From: Escherichia coli
Lineage (GTDB): Bacteria > Pseudomonadota > Gammaproteobacteria > Enterobacterales > Enterobacteriaceae
Length of the DNA stretch: 64,000 bases
Reading direction: 5' to 3' (one strand)
Assembly: GCF_017348835.2 (NCBI RefSeq)
Contig: NZ_CP071375.1
In this document: one piece after another, positions 6,964 to 63,297 of the stretch
Numbering within the stretch: the stretch's first letter is position 1
Layout: each line of letters starts with the position of its first letter
Made by a program: the position numbers and the translations under genes
Notes under the pieces: model-generated
Told to the model about the DNA's origin: nothing
Databases searched by the model: none
The model's input: only the letters and a program-made list of their open reading frames with translations

Positions 6964-7017
6964 GCCGGATGCGTGCCAACCGTAGGTCGGATAAGACGCG
7001 GCAGCGTCGCATCCGAC
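6964..7017. repeat. REP (repetitive extragenic palindrome) element
   Basis: Imperfect palindrome gtaggtcggataagacgcggcagcgtcgcatccgac, typical of E. coli REP units, 3' of ubiF. Confidence 0.7.
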
Positions 7018-8187: not shown

Positions 8188-9852
8188 TTACTTATACGCC
8201 GACTGGTGAACACCAACCGCGCGACCAGACGGATCGTCCATTTTCTTGAACGCTTCATCCCATTCGATCGCTTTAGCGGAAGAACACGCGACGGAAGGAC
8301 CGCCCGGCACGCACTCAGCGGCACTCGGAAGCGGGAATAGTTCTTCAAAGATCTCCCGGTACAGATACGCTTCTTTTGAGGTCGGTGTGTTGTACGGGAA
8401 GCGGAAGCGGGCAGTTTCCAGCTGTTGATCAGAAACCTGCTGCGCCGCCACTTCTTTCAGGGTGTCGATCCAACTGTAACCGACGCCATCGGAGAACTGC
8501 TCTTTCTGCCGCCAGGCCACGCTTGCGGGCAGGTATGACTCAAAACATTCACGCAGGATGTGTTTTTCCATCTTGCCGTTACCGCACATTTTATCCTGCG
8601 GGTTAATGCGCATCGCCACGTCGAGGAATTTCTTGTCGAGGAACGGAACGCGTGCTTCCACGCCCCAGGCTGACATCGCTTTGTTGGCACGGGCGCAGTC
8701 ATACATATGCAGGGCCAGCAGTTTACGCACCGTCTCTTCATGCAGTTCTTTGGCATTCGGTGCTTTGTGGAAGTAAAGATAACCGCCAAACACTTCATCA
8801 GAACCTTCACCGGACAGCACCATTTTAATGCCCATCGCTTTGATCTTACGCGACATTAAATACATCGGTGTTGAAGCGCGAATAGTGGTCACATCATAGG
8901 TTTCGATGTGGTAAATCACGTCGCGGATGGCGTCCAGACCTTCCTGTACAGTGAAGTGAATTTCATGATGCACAGTGCCCAGATGGTTTGCCACTTCCTG
9001 GGCTGCTTTCAGATCCGGTGAACCCGGCAGACCTACAGCAAAGGAGTGTAACTGCGGCCACCAGGCTTCAGAGCGTTCCTGATCTTCCACGCGACGGGCT
9101 GCGTATTTCTTGGTGATAGCGGAAATAATTGAGGAATCCAGACCACCAGAAAGCAGCACACCGTAAGGCACATCAGACATCAGATGGCTTTTAACGGAAT
9201 CTTCCAGAGCCTGACGCAGCTCGTTTTTGTCGGTGACATTATCTTTCACCGCATCGTAGTCGAACCAGTCGCGATGATAATAAGAACGGATTTCGCCGTC
9301 CTGACTCCACAAATAGCTCCCCGCCGGGAACTCTTTAATCGTGCGGCATACCGGCACGAGGGCTTTCATTTCTGAGGCCACATACAGCTGACCATGTTCG
9401 TCATAGCCCATATACAGTGGGATGATCCCCAGATGGTCGCGACCAATCAGGTAGGCATCTTTTTCGCTGTCGTACAGGGCAAAGGCAAACATGCCCTGCA
9501 AGTCGTCGAGAAATTCCGGCCCTTTTTCCTGATACAGCGCGAGGATCACTTCACAGTCAGACCCTGTCTGGAACTGATAACGATCGCCGTATTCAGCGCG
9601 CAATGCCTGGTGATTGTAGATTTCACCGTTTACCGCCAGTACGTGGGTTTTTTGTTGGTTGTAGAGAGGTTGCGCCCCCGCGTTAACGTCAACAATTGAC
9701 AGACGTTCGTGGGCGAGAATGGCGTTATCACTGGCATAAATACCGGACCAGTCCGGGCCACGATGACGCATCAGGCGTGACAGCTCGAGTGCTTTCTTAC
9801 GCAGCTCAACTGCGTCTGTTTTGATATCGAATACGCCAAAAATTGAACACAT
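8188..9852 (-). CDS. asnB: asparagine synthetase B (glutamine-hydrolysing)
   Basis: The ORF track gives 581 aa; the conserved N-terminus MCSIFGVFD, with the catalytic Cys2 of class II amidotransferases, starts at ATG 9852, giving 554 aa. Confidence 0.95.
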   Translation of the reverse strand: MCSIFGVFDIKTDAVELRKKALELSRLMRHRGPDWSGIYASDNAILAHERLSIVDVNAGAQPLYNQQKTHVLAVNGEIYNHQALRAEYGDRYQFQTGSDCEVILALYQEKGPEFLDDLQGMFAFALYDSEKDAYLIGRDHLGIIPLYMGYDEHGQLYVASEMKALVPVCRTIKEFPAGSYLWSQDGEIRSYYHRDWFDYDAVKDNVTDKNELRQALEDSVKSHLMSDVPYGVLLSGGLDSSIISAITKKYAARRVEDQERSEAWWPQLHSFAVGLPGSPDLKAAQEVANHLGTVHHEIHFTVQEGLDAIRDVIYHIETYDVTTIRASTPMYLMSRKIKAMGIKMVLSGEGSDEVFGGYLYFHKAPNAKELHEETVRKLLALHMYDCARANKAMSAWGVEARVPFLDKKFLDVAMRINPQDKMCGNGKMEKHILRECFESYLPASVAWRQKEQFSDGVGYSWIDTLKEVAAQQVSDQQLETARFRFPYNTPTSKEAYLYREIFEELFPLPSAAECVPGGPSVACSSAKAIEWDEAFKKMDDPSGRAVGVHQSAYK

Positions 9853-10098
9853 AACCTTCTCCGTTAACCTGGTATTTGTTGCTTGTTGTGTTTGCTTGTT
9901 TAAAAAAATGCCGCAAAGCAGCACTGTGCGCAAGCGATTTGGCGGTGAAAAAATAAAAAACGTAATGGTGATTGCTGATTTGTGAAAAAGGGGAGGGTGC
10001 GGTGATGTATTTATTAATGGATCGATAATTTTTGGCGGGTTTTATTGAATGTTTATATTTTACGGGGGCCAAATTGCTGACAAAGTGCGATTTGTTCA

Positions 10099-10198
10099 TG
10101 CCGGATGCGGCGTGAACGCCTTATTCGGCCTACAAAAGCATGAAAATTCAATAAATTGCAGGAGCTGCGTAGGCCTGATAAGCGTAGCGCATCAGGCA
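10099..10198. repeat. BIME / RIP-like element (two inverted REPs with a conserved linker)
   Basis: REP tgccggatgcggcgtgaacgccttattcggcctac and inverted REP gtaggcctgataagcgtagcgcatcaggca separated by a linker containing aattcaataaattgcagga. Confidence 0.75.
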
Positions 10199-10248
10199 GT
10201 TTGGCGTTTGTCATCAGAGCCAACCACGTCCGCAGACGTGGTTGCTAT

Positions 10249-11001
10249 TCAGATAACGTCGATTTCAGCGACCGATGGGTAAATCCAGCTGGGGCGGAAC
10301 GGCATACTGTCGATATCGTCGAGCGATGAAACACCAGAGAGCACCAGAATCGTCTCCAGACCTGCCTGGAAGCCGGCCAGAATATCGGTACGCAGGTTAT
10401 CGCCGACAATCACCGTTTCTTCCGAATGTGCCTGCATTTTGTTTAATGCCGCGCGGATAATCCACGGACTCGGCTTACCAACATAGAACGGTTTACGCCC
10501 GGAGATTTTTTCGATCCCTGCACACAACGCGCCACAGGCGGGATAAAAACCGCGCCCGTGGGTGTCCGGGTTGGTGGCGATAAAACGTGCACCGTTAGCG
10601 ACGAAATAGGCCGCTTTATGCATCATGTCCCAGTTGTAGGAACGCGTTTCGCCAACAATCACAAAATCAGGGTTCACATCGGTAATAGTGAAACCGGCTT
10701 TGTACAGTTCATGAATCAGTGCGCCTTCGCCCACCACATACGCTTTCTTGCCTTCCTGGCGACGCAGGAAATCGGCGGTCGCCATCGCAGAGGTATAAAA
10801 CACGCTGTCAGGTACATCGACACCGGCAGTGGCAAAGCGGTTCGCCAGATCCTGCCCGGTCTGCGAAGGATAGTTGGTCAGCAACACCAGCGGCAGGCCT
10901 TTATCCATAATCCCGTGCAAAAATTCCGCTGCACCCGGTACGGCGACGTTATCGTGCATCAGCACGCCGTCGATATCGCAAATTACATTTTTAATGGTCA
11001 T
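10249..11001 (-). CDS. nagD: UMP phosphatase NagD/UmpH (HAD superfamily)
   Basis: 250-aa ORF with HAD motif I DIDGVL; last gene of the nagBACD operon. Confidence 0.93.
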   Translation of the reverse strand: MTIKNVICDIDGVLMHDNVAVPGAAEFLHGIMDKGLPLVLLTNYPSQTGQDLANRFATAGVDVPDSVFYTSAMATADFLRRQEGKKAYVVGEGALIHELYKAGFTITDVNPDFVIVGETRSYNWDMMHKAAYFVANGARFIATNPDTHGRGFYPACGALCAGIEKISGRKPFYVGKPSPWIIRAALNKMQAHSEETVIVGDNLRTDILAGFQAGLETILVLSGVSSLDDIDSMPFRPSWIYPSVAEIDVI

Positions 11002-16767: not shown

Positions 16768-18432
16768 ATGAGTGAGGCAGAAGCCCGCCCGACTAACTTT
16801 ATCCGTCAGATCATCGATGAAGATCTGGCCAGTGGTAAGCACACCACAGTACACACCCGTTTCCCGCCGGAGCCGAATGGCTATCTGCATATTGGCCATG
16901 CGAAATCTATCTGCCTGAACTTCGGGATCGCCCAGGACTATAAAGGCCAGTGCAACCTGCGTTTCGACGACACTAACCCGGTAAAAGAAGATATCGAGTA
17001 TGTTGAGTCGATCAAAAACGACGTAGAGTGGTTAGGTTTTCACTGGTCTGGTAACGTCCGTTACTCCTCCGATTATTTTGATCAGCTTCACGCATATGCG
17101 ATCGAACTGATCAATAAAGGCCTGGCGTACGTTGATGAACTGACGCCGGAACAGATCCGCGAATACCGCGGCACCCTGACACAGCCGGGTAAAAACAGCC
17201 CGTACCGCGACCGCAGCGTTGAAGAGAACCTGGCGCTGTTCGAGAAAATGCGTACCGGCGGTTTTGAAGAAGGTAAAGCCTGCCTGCGTGCGAAAATCGA
17301 CATGGCGTCGCCATTTATCGTAATGCGCGATCCGGTGCTGTACCGCATTAAATTTGCTGAACACCACCAGACTGGCAACAAGTGGTGCATCTACCCGATG
17401 TACGACTTCACCCATTGCATCAGCGATGCGCTGGAAGGTATTACGCACTCTCTGTGTACGCTTGAGTTCCAGGACAACCGTCGCCTGTACGACTGGGTAC
17501 TGGACAACATCACCATTCCTGTTCACCCGCGCCAATACGAATTCTCGCGCCTGAATCTGGAATACACTGTGATGTCCAAGCGTAAGCTGAACCTGCTGGT
17601 GACCGACAAGCACGTTGAAGGCTGGGATGACCCGCGTATGCCGACCATTTCCGGTCTGCGTCGTCGTGGTTACACTGCGGCTTCTATTCGTGAGTTCTGC
17701 AAACGCATCGGCGTGACCAAGCAGGACAACACCATTGAGATGGCGTCGCTGGAATCCTGCATCCGTGAAGATCTCAACGAAAATGCGCCGCGCGCAATGG
17801 CGGTTATCGATCCGGTGAAACTGGTTATCGAAAACTATCAGGGCGAAGGCGAAATGGTCACCATGCCGAACCATCCGAACAAACCGGAAATGGGGAGCCG
17901 TCAGGTGCCGTTTAGCGGTGAGATTTGGATCGATCGCGCCGATTTCCGCGAAGAAGCTAACAAGCAGTACAAACGTCTGGTGCTGGGTAAAGAAGTGCGT
18001 CTGCGTAATGCTTACGTCATTAAGGCTGAACGCGTGGAGAAAGATGCCGAAGGTAATATCACCACCATCTTCTGTACTTATGACGCCGACACCTTAAGCA
18101 AGGATCCGGCAGATGGTCGTAAAGTGAAAGGCGTTATTCACTGGGTAAGCGCGGCACATGCGCTGCCGGTTGAAATCCGCCTGTACGATCGTCTGTTCAG
18201 TGTGCCGAATCCAGGCGCTGCGGATGATTTCCTGTCGGTGATTAACCAGGATTCTCTGGTCATTAAACAGGGCTTTGCTGAACCGTCTCTGAAAGATGCG
18301 GTGGCAGGTAAAGCATTCCAGTTTGAGCGTGAAGGTTACTTCTGCCTCGATAGCCGCCATTCTACGGCGGAAAAACCGGTATTTAACCGCACCGTTGGGC
18401 TGCGTGATACCTGGGCGAAAGTAGGCGAGTAA
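16768..18432 (+). CDS. glnS: glutaminyl-tRNA synthetase
   Basis: 554-aa class I aaRS with HIGH (HIGHAKS) and KMSKS-like (VMSKR) motifs. Confidence 0.97.
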
Positions 18433-18447
18433 TTTTAAGTTTCGCTA

Positions 18448-18610
18448 TGCCGGATGGGGCGTTTACGTCGCATCCGGCAAGGAACAGACAAACAGTTTCA
18501 AACGCTAAATTGCCTGATGCGCTACGCTTATCAGGCCTACATGATCTCTGCAATATATTGAGTTTGCGTGCTTTTGTAGGCCGGATAAGGCGTTCACGCC
18601 GCATCCGGCA
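18448..18610. repeat. BIME cluster (three REP units)
   Basis: Three REP palindromes in alternating orientation: gccggatggggcgtttacgtcgcatccggca, gcctgatgcgctacgcttatcaggcctac, gtaggccggataaggcgttcacgccgcatccggca. Confidence 0.75.
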
Positions 18611-18630
18611 AGAAATATGCAAACAATCCA

Positions 18631-18657
18631 AAACGCCGCGTTCAGCGGCGTTTTTTC
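18631..18657 (+). terminator. intrinsic terminator 3' of glnS
   Basis: Hairpin cgccgcg-ttca-gcggcg followed by a T6 run. Confidence 0.7.
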
Positions 18658-19010: not shown

Positions 19011-20417
19011 ATGCGTACGTTTAGTGGCAAACGTAGTACGCTGGCGCTGGCTATCGCCGGTGTTACAGCAATGTCGGGCTTTATGGCAATGCCGGAGGCT
19101 CGCGCCGAAGGATTCATCGACGATTCAACCTTAACCGGCGGTATCTATTACTGGCAGCGTGAACGCGACCGTAAAGATGTTACCGACGGCGACAAATACA
19201 AAACCAACCTTTCTCACTCCACCTGGAATGCCAACCTCGATTTTCAGTCTGGTTATGCTGCTGATATTTTCGGCCTTGATATTGCCGCGTTTACGGCGAT
19301 TGAAATGGCGGAAAACGGCGACAGCTCTCACCCGAACGAAATCGCGTTTTCAAAAAGTAATAAAGCCTATGACGAAGACTGGTCCGGCGACAAAAGCGGT
19401 ATAAGCCTGTATAAAGCAGCGGCCAAATTTAAATACGGTCCGGTTTGGGCGAGGGCAGGTTATATTCAGCCAACCGGTCAGACGCTGTTAGCGCCGCACT
19501 GGAGCTTTATGCCAGGTACTTATCAGGGGGCGGAAGCCGGAGCGAATTTTGATTACGGCGATGCCGGTGCGTTGAGTTTCTCCTACATGTGGACCAATGA
19601 ATACAAAGCGCCGTGGCATCTGGAAATGGATGAGTTTTATCAGAACGATAAAACCACCAAAGTTGATTATCTGCACTCCCTTGGGGCGAAATACGACTTC
19701 AAAAATAACTTCGTACTGGAAGCGGCATTTGGTCAGGCGGAAGGGTATATCGATCAATATTTTGCCAAAGCCAGCTACAAATTTGATATCGCCGGTAGCC
19801 CGTTAACCACCAGCTACCAGTTCTACGGTACCCGCGATAAAGTTGACGATCGCAGCGTCAACGACCTTTATGACGGCACCGCCTGGCTGCAAGCGTTGAC
19901 CTTTGGTTACCGGGCGGCTGACGTAGTGGATTTGCGCCTCGAAGGCACCTGGGTTAAGGCTGACGGTCAGCAGGGATACTTCCTGCAACGTATGACTCCA
20001 ACCTACGCTTCCTCGAACGGTCGCCTGGATATCTGGTGGGACAACCGTTCCGACTTTAACGCTAACGGCGAAAAAGCGGTTTTCTTCGGTGCGATGTATG
20101 ACCTGAAAAACTGGAATCTTCCAGGCTTCGCCATCGGCGCTTCCTACGTTTACGCATGGGATGCTAAACCTGCGACCTGGCAGAGCAATCCGGATGCGTA
20201 CTACGACAAAAACCGGACTATTGAAGAGTCTGCCTACAGCCTGGATGCGGTCTATACCATTCAGGACGGTCGCGCCAAAGGCACGATGTTCAAACTGCAC
20301 TTCACCGAATACGACAACCACTCCGACATCCCAAGCTGGGGCGGTGGTTACGGCAACATCTTCCAGGATGAGCGTGACGTGAAATTTATGGTAATCGCAC
20401 CATTCACCATCTTCTGA
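19011..20417 (+). CDS. chiP: chitooligosaccharide outer-membrane porin (chitoporin)
   Basis: 468-aa ORF with a signal peptide and C-terminal beta-barrel ending in ...APFTIF; recognised as ChiP/YbfM. Confidence 0.93.
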
Positions 20418-25919: not shown

Positions 25920-26600
25920 CAAATGCGCCTATAAGGCTCTCTTACCAGCCGCGCCCTAACAGGCGCACACGATCTGACATTTGCATCCAACTTCGTTACT
26001 TACGGCCCGTAAACGGGCTGCCCGGATAGGGAATCGATAACTGCTCTACCATTTTATCCTCTTCAAGCTGGTGCTTTATGTAATCCTGTATCTTCGCCGT
26101 GTTCTTACCCACTGTATCGACGTAGTACCCTCTGCACCAGAACTCCCTGTTCCTGTATTTGAATTTCAAATCACCAAACTGCTCGTAAAGCATCAGACTG
26201 CTTTTCCCTTCCAGATATCCCATAAAGCCGGATACGCTCATTTTGGGCGGGATCTCCACAAGCATATGGATATGATCTGCACAGCATTCAGCTTCCAGAA
26301 TCCGTACACTTTTCCACTCACACAGCTTTCTCAAAATACTGCCTATTGCTCTACGCTTCTCTCTGTAGAACACCTGTCTTCGATATTTTGGCGCAAAAAC
26401 TATGTGATATTTACAGTTCCATCGGGTGTGCGCTAAGCTCTTTTCGTTCCCCATTGGGACCCCCTTTTGATTTCTTGTTTGACACTTGCAGTTGCCAGAC
26501 CGCAAGGTGTTTTAACAAATCAAAAGGGGTTTTAATAACTGGCTCAAAGCTGAAAGCTTTCCGGAACCCCCAGCCTAGCTGGGGGTTTTCTGTGCACAAG
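25920..26600 (-). mobile_element. IS200 insertion sequence (IS200/IS605 family); ends approximate
   Basis: Contains a 152-aa HuH tyrosine transposase and the characteristic IS200 5' leader hairpins; boundaries estimated to about +/-30 bp from the flanking pgm and potE terminators. Confidence 0.8.
25996..26454 (-). CDS. tnpA: IS200 transposase TnpA (HuH Y1 transposase)
   Basis: 152 aa from ATG 26454 (MGNEKSLAHTRWNCKYHIVFAPKYRR...) with HuH motif HIHML and catalytic Tyr in RGYYVDTVG; near-identical to the Salmonella IS200 TnpA from memory. Confidence 0.9.
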   Translation of the reverse strand: MGNEKSLAHTRWNCKYHIVFAPKYRRQVFYREKRRAIGSILRKLCEWKSVRILEAECCADHIHMLVEIPPKMSVSGFMGYLEGKSSLMLYEQFGDLKFKYRNREFWCRGYYVDTVGKNTAKIQDYIKHQLEEDKMVEQLSIPYPGSPFTGRK

Positions 26601-39357: not shown

Positions 39358-39867
39358 ATGAATCAGCAACGATTTGATGACAGCACCCTAATCCGTATCT
39401 TCGCCCTTCATGAGTTACATCGACTGAAAGAACATGGCTTAACGCGCGGGGCGCTTCTCGATTATCACAGCCGCTATAAACTCGTCTTTCTGGCTCATTC
39501 CCAGCCGGAATACCGCAAACTTGGCCCGTTCGTGGCTGATATTCACCAGTGGCAAAATCTGGATGACTATTACAACCAGTACCGCCAACGCGTAGTTGTT
39601 TTGCTTTCTCACCCCGCCAACCGACGTGACCACACCAACGTTTTGATGCACGTTCAGGGTTATTTTCGCCCGCATATTGATTCCACAGAACGCCAGCAGC
39701 TGGCTGCGCTTATCGACAGTTATCGCCGTGGCGAGCAACCGCTTCTTGCGCCGCTGATGCGTATCAAACACTATATGGCGCTTTATCCTGACGCCTGGCT
39801 TTCAGGGCAGCGTTATTTCGAACTTTGGCCGCGTGTGATTAACTTGCGCCATTCAGGAGTTTTATGA
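39358..39867 (+). CDS. ybgA: DUF1722-family protein YbgA
   Basis: 169 aa from ATG 39358 (MNQQRFDDSTLIRIF) with an AGGAG Shine-Dalgarno; the ORF-track start at 39289 would read through the ybfA terminator. Confidence 0.85.
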   Translation: MNQQRFDDSTLIRIFALHELHRLKEHGLTRGALLDYHSRYKLVFLAHSQPEYRKLGPFVADIHQWQNLDDYYNQYRQRVVVLLSHPANRRDHTNVLMHVQGYFRPHIDSTERQQLAALIDSYRRGEQPLLAPLMRIKHYMALYPDAWLSGQRYFELWPRVINLRHSGVL

Positions 39868-41282
39868 CTACCCATCTGGTCTGGTTTCGCCAGGATTTAC
39901 GTCTGCATGATAATCTCGCGCTGGCTGCCGCCTGCCGCAATTCGTCTGCACGCGTGCTGGCGTTGTATATCGCTACACCACGCCAGTGGGCGGCGCATAA
40001 TATGTCGCCGCGTCAGGCTGAACTTATCAATGCTCAACTGAACGGGCTACAAATCGCGCTGGCGGAAAAAGGCATTCCTTTATTGTTCCGTGAAGTGGAT
40101 GACTTTGCCGCCAGCGTCGAAATAGTTAAACAGGTGTGCGCGGAAAACAGCGTTACTCATCTTTTTTATAACTATCAGTATGAGGTGAATGAGCGGGCGC
40201 GGGATGTGCAGGTTGAGAGAACGCTGCGTAACGTGGTGTGTGAAGGATTTGATGACAGCGTGATCCTGCCGCCTGGCGCGGTGATGACCGGCAATCATGA
40301 GATGTACAAAGTCTTTACGCCTTTTCAAAATGCCTGGCTGAAACGGCTGCGGGAAGGGATGCCGGAGTGCGTCGCTGCACCAAAAGTTCGTAGTAGCGGA
40401 TCGATAAAGCCCGCGCCATCAATTACGCTGAATTATCCTCGTCAGTCTTTCGATACTGCGCATTTTCCGATGGAAGAAAAAGCGGCGATTGCGCAATTAC
40501 GCCAGTTTTGCCAGAACGGTGCCGGAGAATATGAGCAACAACGAGATTTTCCGGCAGTTGAAGGCACCAGCCGTTTGTCCGCCAGCCTGGCAACGGGCGG
40601 GTTATCACCTCGCCAGTGTTTGCATCGCCTGTTGGCGGAACAGCCGCAGGCGCTGGACGGTGGGGCCGGTAGTGTCTGGCTTAGTGAGCTGATCTGGCGC
40701 GAGTTCTACCGTCATCTGATGACGTATTACCCCTCGTTGTGTAAACATCGTCCATTTATTGCCTGGACGGATCGTGTGCAGTGGCAAAGCAATCCCGCCC
40801 ATTTAAAGGCCTGGCAGAAAGGCAAAACGGGATACCCGATTGTTGATGCCGCTATGCGTCAGCTTAACAGCACTGGCTGGATGCATAACCGGCTACGGAT
40901 GATTACAGCCAGTTTTCTGGTGAAAGATTTGTTGATCGACTGGCGCGAAGGCGAGCGATATTTCATGTCGCAGCTGATTGATGGTGATTTGGCAGCCAAT
41001 AACGGTGGCTGGCAGTGGGCGGCTTCTACGGGTACTGATGCAGCGCCGTATTTTCGTATTTTCAACCCGACAACCCAGGGCGAGAAATTTGACCGCGAAG
41101 GCGAGTTTATCCGCCAGTGGCTACCGGAACTACGCAATGTACCGGGGAAATCGGTGCATGAGCCGTGGAAGTGGGCGCAGAAAGCAGGTGTGAAGCTGGA
41201 TTATCCGCAACCGATAGTCGAGCACAAAGAGGCGAGAGTACAAACGTTGGCAGCGTATGAGGCGGCGCGGAAGGGGAAATAA
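39864..41282 (+). CDS. phr: deoxyribodipyrimidine photolyase
   Basis: 472-aa ORF with photolyase N-terminal and FAD-binding domains; ATGA overlap with ybgA. Confidence 0.95.
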   Translation: MTTHLVWFRQDLRLHDNLALAAACRNSSARVLALYIATPRQWAAHNMSPRQAELINAQLNGLQIALAEKGIPLLFREVDDFAASVEIVKQVCAENSVTHLFYNYQYEVNERARDVQVERTLRNVVCEGFDDSVILPPGAVMTGNHEMYKVFTPFQNAWLKRLREGMPECVAAPKVRSSGSIKPAPSITLNYPRQSFDTAHFPMEEKAAIAQLRQFCQNGAGEYEQQRDFPAVEGTSRLSASLATGGLSPRQCLHRLLAEQPQALDGGAGSVWLSELIWREFYRHLMTYYPSLCKHRPFIAWTDRVQWQSNPAHLKAWQKGKTGYPIVDAAMRQLNSTGWMHNRLRMITASFLVKDLLIDWREGERYFMSQLIDGDLAANNGGWQWAASTGTDAAPYFRIFNPTTQGEKFDREGEFIRQWLPELRNVPGKSVHEPWKWAQKAGVKLDYPQPIVEHKEARVQTLAAYEAARKGK

Positions 41283-41309
41283 CAGACGCGTCAGGCAATC
41301 GAGCCCAGA

Positions 41310-41417
41310 TGCCGGATGCGGCGTGAACGCCTTATCCAGCCTACAAATTTGTGCAAATTCAATAAATTGCAGGAAATACGTAGGCCTGATAAGACGCGTC
41401 AAGCGTCGCATCAGGCA
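41310..41417. repeat. BIME / RIP-like element (two inverted REPs with a conserved linker)
   Basis: REP tgccggatgcggcgtgaacgccttatccagcctac and inverted REP gtaggcctgataagacgcgtcaagcgtcgcatcaggca separated by a linker containing aattcaataaattgcagga, as at 10099-10198. Confidence 0.75.
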
Positions 41418-41431
41418 TCGGTGCTGGCCTA

Positions 41432-43096
<1,665 letters not shown>

Positions 43097-58762: not shown

Positions 58763-58885
58763 CCGTAGGCCTGATAAGACGCGCAAGCGTCGCATCAGGC
58801 AACCAGTGCCGGATGCGGCGTGAACGCCTTATCCGGCCTACAAGTCATTACCCGTAGGCCTGATAAGCGCAGCGCATCAGGCGTA
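58763..58885. repeat. BIME cluster (three REP units)
   Basis: Three alternating REP palindromes between sdhB and the sucA promoter region. Confidence 0.75.
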
Positions 58886-63114: not shown

Positions 63115-63297
63115 ACTGTAGACCGGATAAGACATTATCGCCTTCTCCGGCAATTGAAGCCTGATGCGACGCTTAACGCGTCTTATCAGGCCTACGGGAA
63201 GCACCGATGTAGGTCGGATAAGGCGCTCGCGCCGCATCCGACAAGCGATGCCAGATGCGACGCTTACACGTCTTATCAGGCCTACGGGTGACCGACA
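63115..63297. repeat. BIME cluster (several REP units)
   Basis: REP palindromes gcctgatgcgacgcttaacgcgtcttatcaggcctac, gtaggtcggataaggcgctcgcgccgcatccgac and gccagatgcgacgcttacacgtcttatcaggcctac in the sucB-sucC spacer. Confidence 0.75.

Follow-up and report, generated by a model that had tools for sequence, protein, structure and literature searches.

Two intergenic elements in a 64,000-nucleotide stretch of Escherichia coli DNA (the window), each built from a REP, a linker and an inverted REP, share part of their linker exactly, which raises the question of the repeat class to which they belong and of whether they are functional parts of the genes beside them. The original prediction had placed them at 10099-10198 (here the 10k element, in the asnB-nagD spacer) and at 41310-41417 (the 41k element, in the phr-dtpD spacer); a further element, at 18512-18609 (the 18k element, in the glnS-chiP spacer), is described below. 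The explanation that we favor, and consider very probable as a whole, is that these elements are Escherichia copies of BIME-1 (RIP, repetitive IHF-binding palindromic element; RIB, reiterative IHF BIME), with 10k and 18k in the canonical form and 41k as a chimera, and that they are passengers with mild effects.

A 901-nt query around the 10k element found a 100% match in E. coli PE164, and at least 80% of its length was matched in 5,374 other complete E. coli genomes. Gene names were taken from the E. coli PE164 record and from K-12, and the genes bordering the three spacers are as follows.

8188-9852, minus strand: asnB
10249-11001, minus strand: nagD/umpH
16768-18432, plus strand: glnS
Starting at 19011, plus strand: chiP
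39864-41282, plus strand: phr
41432-42913, minus strand: dtpD

All three elements are located in 3' untranslated regions. The 10k element lies 50 nt downstream of the nagD stop codon and 247 nt upstream of the asnB start codon, and because asnB and nagD are both encoded on the minus strand it is not situated between convergent genes. The predicted location of the elements at the 3' ends of convergent genes is therefore correct for phr (+) and dtpD (-), the only convergent pair among the element loci, and incorrect for the co-directional asnB and nagD. Open reading frames at 10049-10282 (+), 9806-10099 (-) and 41257-41463 (+) were considered as genes and rejected: they cross the dispersed repeat, and no annotated CDS lies over the repeat in PE164 or K-12.

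The 19-mer AATTCAATAAATTGCAGGA was found on the plus strand at 10145-10163 and 41356-41374, and nowhere else as an exact match in the window; further sites with up to three mismatches were absent from the window as well, with 0.02 expected by chance. The exact run common to the 10k and 41k linkers is 20 nt, one A beyond the 19-mer originally noticed. Each 19-mer copy sits in a 35-nt linker with a Y REP to its left and an inverted REP to its right; in both elements the left 34-nt REP reads GCCGGATGCGGCGTGAACGCCTTAT..GCCTAC and the right inverted REP starts with GTAGGCCTGATAAG, so that the proposed anatomy of a REP, a linker containing the 19-mer and an inverted REP was confirmed at both loci. 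The K-12 asnB-umpH copy reads CAATATATTG in the 19-mer region, and the 19-mer identity between the 10k and 41k loci is thus peculiar to this strain. The Y REP of the 10k element also differs from K-12 by one SNP, TTCGG versus TCCGG. The parts of the 10k element are the following.

10070-10098, plus strand: left outer flank, an A-like motif that includes TGCTGACAAA as an arm of the outer inverted repeat and fits the consensus TCAGATTGCTGACAAAGTGCGCTTTGTTCA
10099/10100-10133, plus strand: Y-type REP of 34-35 nt, TGCCGGATGCGGCGTGAACGCCTTATTCGGCCTAC (regex scan and alignments)
10134-10168, plus strand: 35-nt L linker, aligning to the linker consensus of the family, AAAATCaTGCAAATTCAATATATTGCAG...; Rfam ES036 matches at 10134-10176
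10146-10158, plus strand: IHF-consensus-like site ATTCAATAAATTG, one mismatch to WATCAANNNNTTR
10169-10198, minus strand: Z1-type REP of 29-30 nt in inverted orientation to Y, with the minus-strand sequence GCCTGATGCGCTACGCTTATCAGGCCTAC (regex scan)
10199-10217, plus strand: right outer flank, a B-like motif, GTTTGGCGTTTGTCATCAG, which fits the consensus ATTTTGCGTTTGTCATCAGT and includes an outer inverted-repeat arm

The arms of the outer inverted repeat of the 10k unit are located at 10075-10084 and 10207-10216, and other genomic copies align to window positions 10070-10217, a unit of 148 bp. The coordinates first given, 10099-10198 and 41310-41417, accordingly bound the REP-linker-REP core of the two elements, but the 10k unit extends further, to approximately 10070-10217.

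Furthermore, the window does not hold two copies only. A third element with an L linker, overlooked at first, is present in the glnS-chiP spacer.

18512-18540, plus strand: Z1 REP
18541-18575, minus strand: L linker, containing AACTCAATATATTGCAGAG read on the minus strand, with an IHF-like site at 18551-18563 (-)
18576-18609, minus strand: Y REP

With its order of Z1, linker and Y, the 18k element has the opposite orientation to 10k and 41k. It escaped the mismatch search with the 19-mer because its linker sequence, AACTCAATATATTGCAGAG, has four mismatches to the 19-mer; a three-way alignment nevertheless identified the same 35-nt linker in all three window copies. The 41k element consists of the following parts.

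41288-41300, plus strand: candidate REP-head remnant left of Y, GCGTCAGGCAA against the canonical GCATCAGGCAA, with a weak, short alignment to the Z2-S-Y of the BIME starting at 58765
41310/41311-41344, plus strand: Y-type REP
41345-41379, plus strand: 35-nt L linker; 41345-41387 is identical to the Rfam ES036 (CssrF) consensus, and an IHF-like site with one mismatch lies at 41357-41369
41380-41417, minus strand: inverted Z2-type REP, 37 nt long, with the minus-strand sequence GCCTGATGCGACGCTTGACGCGTCTTATCAGGCCTAC; 14 nt separate its end from the dtpD stop codon

The right arm of 41k matches in both length and sequence the Z2 REPs at 58765-58800 and 63159-63195, and the segment at 41288-41300 is a possible remnant of a REP head. 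The phr-dtpD spacer in K-12 is identical to that in the window. The treatment of 10k and 41k as equivalent elements does not hold, since their right arms differ (29-nt Z1 versus 37-nt Z2).

In the published classification, a BIME-1 is a single copy of z1 and y on either side of L, a long linker of high conservation in which an IHF site is often present; a BIME-2 pairs z2 with y, has the short linker S and is repeated in tandem; and atypical BIMEs combine the modules (y, z1, z2, L, S, s, l, r) in chimeric arrangements (PMC3333891). IHF is attached to BIME-1, and strong gyrase binding to BIME-2 (PMC2817692). Since the IHF linker defines BIME-1 and the short S linker BIME-2, the "RIP/BIME-2" label first applied to the elements merges two separate classes, and the class with the IHF linker is BIME-1 (RIP/RIB; PMC3333891, PMC2817692). 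One Y and one inverted Z1 stand tail to tail in 10k and 18k but not in 41k, where the second arm is Z2; a single unit is found at each of the three loci; and conserved outer flanks are present on both sides of 10k, partially and on the right only in 18k, and on neither side of 41k. Membership in the family was thus observed directly, in sequence and in architecture. Judged by their modules, 10k and 18k are canonical BIME-1, and 41k, as a Y-L-Z2 chimera, comes closest to the atypical BIMEs, even though only one unit and no tandem is present. The elements are genuine members of an intergenic repeat family that is well known in E. coli, and the finding is therefore an ordinary one: the status as ordinary REP/BIME elements with a common conserved linker is upheld, and the low interest initially assigned to them was fair. 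The NC_000913.3 annotation used here contains no REP/RIP repeat features, and a literature text search for Oppenheim's RIP term returned no match.

To place the elements among their relatives, a species-representative genome collection was scanned for a pattern of Y tail, L core and REP tail, in which the L core is forced by the pattern itself. The scan yielded at least 99 stretches, and E. coli proper was not among the matches listed despite its exact matches. Hosts among the matches listed include Escherichia albertii, E. whittamii, several other Escherichia lineages and three Pseudocitrobacter genomes, so dozens of related copies were observed in Escherichia and Pseudocitrobacter. Three further contigs among the matches listed look like contamination. 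About 80% of the 112 matches listed, a number that includes the three window copies, have the form Y (34 nt), L (35 nt) and Z1 (29 nt) with conserved flanks; the right arm of 10k is of this prevailing type, and 41k is the sole Y-L-Z2 combination among the 112. The 102 copies outside the window gave the flank consensus sequences TCAGATTGCTGACAAAGTGCGCTTTGTTCA on the left and ATTTTGCGTTTGTCATCAGT on the right, with similarity extending past the REPs, and the linker measures 35 nt in 83 of them. The conserved outer flanks are presumably the published A and B motifs.

As a counter-check that imposed no constraint on the linker, tail-to-tail REP pairs were collected from the fetched neighboring DNA. 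All unconstrained pairs with a linker of 34-36 nt carry L with one to two substitutions, which identifies L as a constant part of the unit. A linker-only search of 5,426 complete E. coli genomes detected a median of 22 copies per genome (range 5-40). One Escherichia lineage possesses 7-copy tandem arrays of the unit with a period of 115 bp, a departure from the "single copy" rule for BIME-1. Moreover, the phr-dtpD spacer of three Pseudocitrobacter genomes contains a complete BIME-1 with flanks, in which Y adjoins phr in two genomes and the orientation is inverted in the third.

Within E. coli, the presence of each element was counted with narrow queries against 5426 complete genomes. The 41k element was present in 1981/5426 (36.5%), 10k in 2279/5426 (42%) and 18k in 2456/5426 (45%), a polymorphism seen directly in the counts. 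More than half of the complete E. coli genomes are without each element, arguing against an important locus-specific function. The alleles that lack an element take a different form at each locus. The empty phr-dtpD allele has a spacer of 41 bp (108 bp shorter) with one hairpin, GCCTGATAAAACGCAGCGAGCGTTTTATCAGGC, which shows homology to the Z2 arm and includes the stop codon of phr; the C-terminal residues of Phr differ between the alleles (AARKGK versus EARKGA). The empty glnS-chiP allele is 130 bp shorter and has kept a single Y-like REP, and in the empty nagD-asnB allele approximately 170 bp (window positions ~10052-10221) are replaced by about 30 unrelated bases. Simple recombination between two Y-like copies was considered as the origin of the empty glnS-chiP allele, but the REP in that allele is not a clean recombinant. 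Because the empty phr-dtpD allele keeps the Z2-homologous hairpin, 41k is most simply explained as Y-L joined to a resident hairpin of the Z2 type.

These alleles bear on a stronger version of the explanation, in which BIME-1, as a unit of ~148 bp whose ends are conserved, would still be mobile today in a non-autonomous manner and would target REP or terminator hairpins already resident in 3' spacers. Fitting observations are the absence of all three window copies from the majority of E. coli genomes, the single REP-like hairpin kept in the 41k-empty and 18k-empty alleles, and, in other genomes, the occurrence of the phr-dtpD BIME-1 of Pseudocitrobacter in both orientations and the 7-copy Escherichia tandem arrays. 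According to the literature, the REPs bordering the RAYT gene of E. coli are Y and Z2 and not Z1 (PMC2817692), and BIME-directed cleavage has been reported for Y/Z2 substrates (PMC3333891). We regard an active mobile unit as possible but doubtful; if it were real, an insertion or recombination event that fused Y-L to a resident Z2 would have left the phr-dtpD chimera as its footprint. In the preferred explanation, of BIME-1 copies carried as passengers, the origin of the elements would most likely be REP-directed insertion or recombination of the RAYT/TnpA-REP type proposed in the literature, and the copies would be retained as passengers that are close to neutral and affect the stability of the upstream mRNA mildly and in a locus-dependent way.

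The position of the elements also invites the opposite view, that they are selected, locus-specific terminators or mRNA stabilizers for nagD, glnS and phr/dtpD, and hence functional 3'-end modules and not passengers. Their place in 3' untranslated regions speaks for it, as does the RNA structure, which was strong in the predictions: the folds of the elements are very stable (z-scores -4.9, -6.1, -6.4 and -6.9), and the predicted minimum-energy fold of 41k pairs Y with Z2 across the linker. Further hairpins were located around the 10k and 18k elements.

10218-10245, minus strand: strong 12-bp hairpin directly past the nagD stop codon, identified by RNA folding and outside the repeat
9907-9925, minus strand: terminator-like hairpin followed by a T-run, which on the nagD strand comes after the 10k element and before the asnB start codon
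18630-18654, plus strand: terminator-like hairpin followed by a T-run, downstream of the 18k element

On the nagD strand the order is thus nagD stop codon, 12-bp hairpin, 10k repeat, terminator-like hairpin with T-run, asnB start codon. The hairpin at 18630-18654 is likely the intrinsic terminator of glnS, and since it lies downstream of 18k, that element would sit inside the glnS 3' UTR. No canonical hairpin-plus-U-run terminator was found in the 149-bp phr-dtpD spacer, which favors a terminating or stabilizing role at that locus. At the other two loci the surroundings count against such a role, because terminator-like sites for nagD and glnS are present downstream of the element too, and because the strong hairpin past the nagD stop codon has a near-identical copy in the 10k-empty allele, as seen in the alignment with a genome that lacks the 10k element. 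Likewise, the 41k-empty and 18k-empty alleles retain a simpler hairpin that might serve equally well, and each element is absent from 55-64% of the complete E. coli genomes.

Published data on transcript ends were compared with the corresponding K-12 intervals (10k, 699424-699523; 18k, 707837-707934; 41k, 740953-741060). Mapping of mRNA 3' ends had been suggested as a check on these elements, and none of the 3' ends listed in the supplementary Term-seq tables of Adams et al. 2021 falls within these intervals, so that these data, for the conditions that they cover, lend no support to a role of the elements in setting 3' ends at these loci. The only nearby entry of Adams et al. is a bicyclomycin-sensitive Rho termination region with its peak at K-12 699190(-) (Rho score 3.17, p = 6.8e-11), located in the umpH-to-asnB spacer 234 nt downstream of the 10k element; its score derives from 800-nt windows and is not assignable to the element. 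REPs are viewed as protecting transcripts that Rho terminates further downstream (PMC6061677), and both this report and the Rho-dependent region in the nagD-asnB spacer can be cited in favor of functional 3'-end modules. The Rho peak is compatible with read-through of the repeat followed by Rho termination beyond it, and is no proof that the repeat matters. Taking the two sides together, we consider it unlikely that the elements are selected 3'-end modules, and retain the reading of BIME-1 copies as passengers.

The linker is the second feature for which a function has been suggested. The expectation that it belongs to a class reported to bind IHF was correct, the class being that of the BIME-1 L linker (PMC3333891, PMC2817692); IHF binding by the family was reported by Boccard and Prentki 1993, as that work is cited in PMC3333891 and PMC2817692. 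All three window copies contain an IHF-like 13-mer with one mismatch to WATCAANNNNTTR, namely ATTCAATAAATTG in 10k and 41k and ACTCAATATATTG in 18k. Sites with zero to one mismatch number 56 in the window, and a sequence match alone is therefore weak evidence; exact matches to the consensus occur five times in the 64-kb window, none of them inside a BIME. The IHF ChIP-seq paper PMC3333857 makes no mention of REP or BIME. The case for IHF at the candidate L sites thus comes, in our analysis, from the published family-level experiments.

A different role for the same segment is suggested by Rfam RF02751, "ES036 (CssrF) sRNA", a 43-nt family of the type "Gene; sRNA" with a gathering score of 37.6 bits. 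Window positions 41345-41387 are identical to the RF02751 consensus at every position (75.1 bits, the same score as at the K-12 phr-dtpD locus), and the 41k linker is therefore already catalogued. The 10k linker (10134-10176) scores 42.3 bits, above the gathering score, and the 18k linker 28.9 bits, below it. RF02751 also matches BIME-1 L linkers in E. albertii, E. whittamii, other Escherichia lineages and Pseudocitrobacter; evidently, the family was built on the phr-dtpD locus and is in practice a BIME-1 linker motif. A literature text search for ES036/CssrF retrieved unrelated papers only. The linker could on these grounds be primarily a small-RNA gene (ES036/CssrF) whose ends are defined by the REPs, with a functional trans-acting sRNA made from phr-dtpD and perhaps from other L linkers, and besides its type and the identity to 41345-41387 the RF02751 model includes a small hairpin (UUGUGCAA...UUGCAGGAA). 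But a family that matches the linkers of many BIME-1 copies in several species describes a repeat motif and not a single-copy gene, no promoter-like site was found in 41200-41520, a 43-nt RNA between two very stable hairpins is the expected appearance of a decay intermediate of the phr 3' UTR, and ~63% of E. coli genomes are without the element at the phr-dtpD locus. We therefore judge a dedicated sRNA gene to be very improbable, and keep to the interpretation of the segment as the linker of a BIME-1. Since RF02751 is in effect the BIME-1 linker motif, its matches should not be taken as independent sRNA genes, which is of value for annotation.

Finally, the window contains BIME-2-like clusters at 58765-58882 and 63159-63285, both of which match Rfam naRNA4, and the cluster at 58765-58841 has a head-to-head linker of 7 nt; at the gathering score naRNA4 matched none of the three L elements. 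That the elements are themselves BIME-2 and mainly strong DNA gyrase sites rather than IHF sites, as the Y and Z2 arm pair of 41k and the true BIME-2-like clusters elsewhere in the window might suggest, is scarcely tenable, being contradicted by the length and sequence of the linker in all three, by their occurrence once per locus, by the Z1 right arms of 10k and 18k and by the tie of IHF to BIME-1 (PMC3333891, PMC2817692).

The favored account can be put together as follows. BIME-1 is a non-coding, palindromic, REP-derived element. Its full unit of ~148 bp is organized as Y REP, 35-bp L linker and inverted Z1 REP, with a flank on the left and another on the right. At the DNA level, published work on the family suggests that the L linker may offer an IHF site flanked by two cruciform-prone palindromes. 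At the RNA level, the same body of work suggests that the REP stem-loops in 3' UTRs form stable structures able to block 3'-to-5' exonucleases, and that they may mark the ends of transcripts whose termination by Rho occurs further downstream. None of this goes beyond known E. coli BIME biology; what the polymorphism, the chimera and the overlap with Rfam ES036 contribute is useful to annotation and does not amount to discovery. The practical value likewise lies in annotation, in that the IHF-linked class is BIME-1 and not BIME-2. Because the three copies vary between E. coli lineages, natural strain pairs exist for measuring the effect of a BIME-1, and such pairs would make its influence on the mRNA of nagD, glnS, phr or dtpD, and on local IHF binding, directly measurable.

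Compared with known systems, the closest counterpart is BIME-1 itself: 10k and 18k match it in their Y, L and inverted Z1, in their single copy and in their 3' UTR location, while 41k differs in having a Z2 arm in place of Z1 and in the absence of the flanks. Atypical BIMEs resemble 41k in mixing modules of BIME-1 and BIME-2, here Y, L and Z2, perhaps with a REP remnant to the left of Y, but they have been described in multiple tandem copies, whereas 41k is one unit. The gyrase- and HU-associated REP clusters of the BIME-2 or naRNA4 type share their REP modules with the elements, and 41k has their Z2 arm; they are tandem with a short S linker, in contrast to all three window elements, which have the 35-nt L and no tandem repetition. 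RF02751 carries a name that implies an sRNA gene, whereas what it matches, both in the window and in other species, is the L motif of a repeat found at dispersed sites. REPINs and RAYT-mobilized REP doublets, lastly, resemble the elements in that an inverted REP doublet forms one long hairpin, in their dispersal, many copies and polymorphism, and in occupying the same spacer in different genera and in both orientations.

The window holds a third BIME-1 in addition to the elements of the nagD-asnB spacer (10099-10198) and the phr-dtpD spacer (41310-41417), and all three carry the same type of L linker. It is situated in the 3' UTR of glnS, upstream of a hairpin that is likely to be the glnS terminator, and its surroundings are as follows.
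18448-18479: Y-like perfect palindrome lacking the GTAG tail, just before the BIME-1.
18512-18609: third BIME-1, Z1-L-Y on the + strand, opposite in orientation to the other two.
18630-18654: terminator-like hairpin followed by a T-run, downstream of the BIME-1.
Three L-type linkers were observed in the 64-kb window against about 0.3 expected per 64 kb, an expectation derived from a median of about 22 detectable copies per complete E. coli genome; this local clustering is a post-hoc observation.

All three elements were found to be polymorphic for presence and absence: across the complete E. coli genomes surveyed (5,426), each occurs in 36-45%. Alleles were compared over window positions 41283-41431 (against L104, L105 and L106, lacking the phr-dtpD element), 10052-10221 (against L107, lacking the nagD-asnB element) and 18442-18572 (against L108, lacking the glnS element). 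A single REP-like hairpin was retained in the alleles without the phr-dtpD and glnS elements, and in the former the phr stop codon lies inside this hairpin. Moreover, the Phr C-terminus differs between the phr-dtpD alleles (AARKGK versus EARKGA). At the other end of this spacer, 14 nt separate the end of the Z2 REP from the stop codon of dtpD (41417-41434).
41432-41434, - strand: dtpD stop codon, TAA.
REPs located no more than about 15 nt from a stop codon reportedly reduce translation via ribosome stalling, according to a 2015 study.

The linker of the phr-dtpD element (41345-41387; K-12 counterpart, L002 2989-3031) is identical to the consensus of Rfam RF02751, annotated as "ES036 (CssrF) sRNA", and BIME-1 L linkers outside E. 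coli, from further Escherichia species as well as Pseudocitrobacter, match the same model. Because of this identity and these matches across BIME-1 copies elsewhere, the sRNA family RF02751 is in effect the BIME-1 linker motif. Rfam naRNA4 reached its gathering score at both REP clusters of the window, and, unrelated to the BIMEs, an Hfq-binding sRNA family, STnc490, was matched at 26464-26587 on the - strand (146 bits).
6982-7017: solo REP after ubiF.
58765-58882 and 63159-63285: Z2-Y-Z1 and Z2-Y-Z2 REP clusters, the former type with short linkers.

In the nagD-asnB spacer, Rho-dependent (bicyclomycin-sensitive) termination has been reported from a region whose peak, K-12 position 699190 on the - strand (about window 9865; Rho score 3.17), precedes the asnB start codon by 13 nt. 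Either this region or the hairpin below could serve as the nag-operon terminator or as an asnB leader attenuator.
9925-9907: terminator-like hairpin with a T-run.

Outside Escherichia, a complete BIME-1 with flanks occupies the phr-dtpD convergent spacer of at least three Pseudocitrobacter genomes (L043 6860-7095; L033 7615-7825; L099 1265-1470), and is inverted in P. vendiensis relative to P. faecalis, which suggests either an insertion hotspot or inversion of the palindromic unit. Among the matches listed, Escherichia-type BIME-1 sequence was also present on contigs L021, L022 and L086, assigned to a Bacteroides MAG, Desulfosporosinus sp. OT (262 bp) and a Collinsella MAG, likely reflecting contamination or mis-binning of those assemblies. 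Finally, while textbook BIME-1 elements are single copies, tandem arrays in which the Y-L-Z1 unit recurs about seven times, once every 115 bp (95-96% matches), were identified in Escherichia sp. MOD1-EC7003 (L098, 231-1071; L093, 7861-8667), as well as in L089, L090, L094 and L095.
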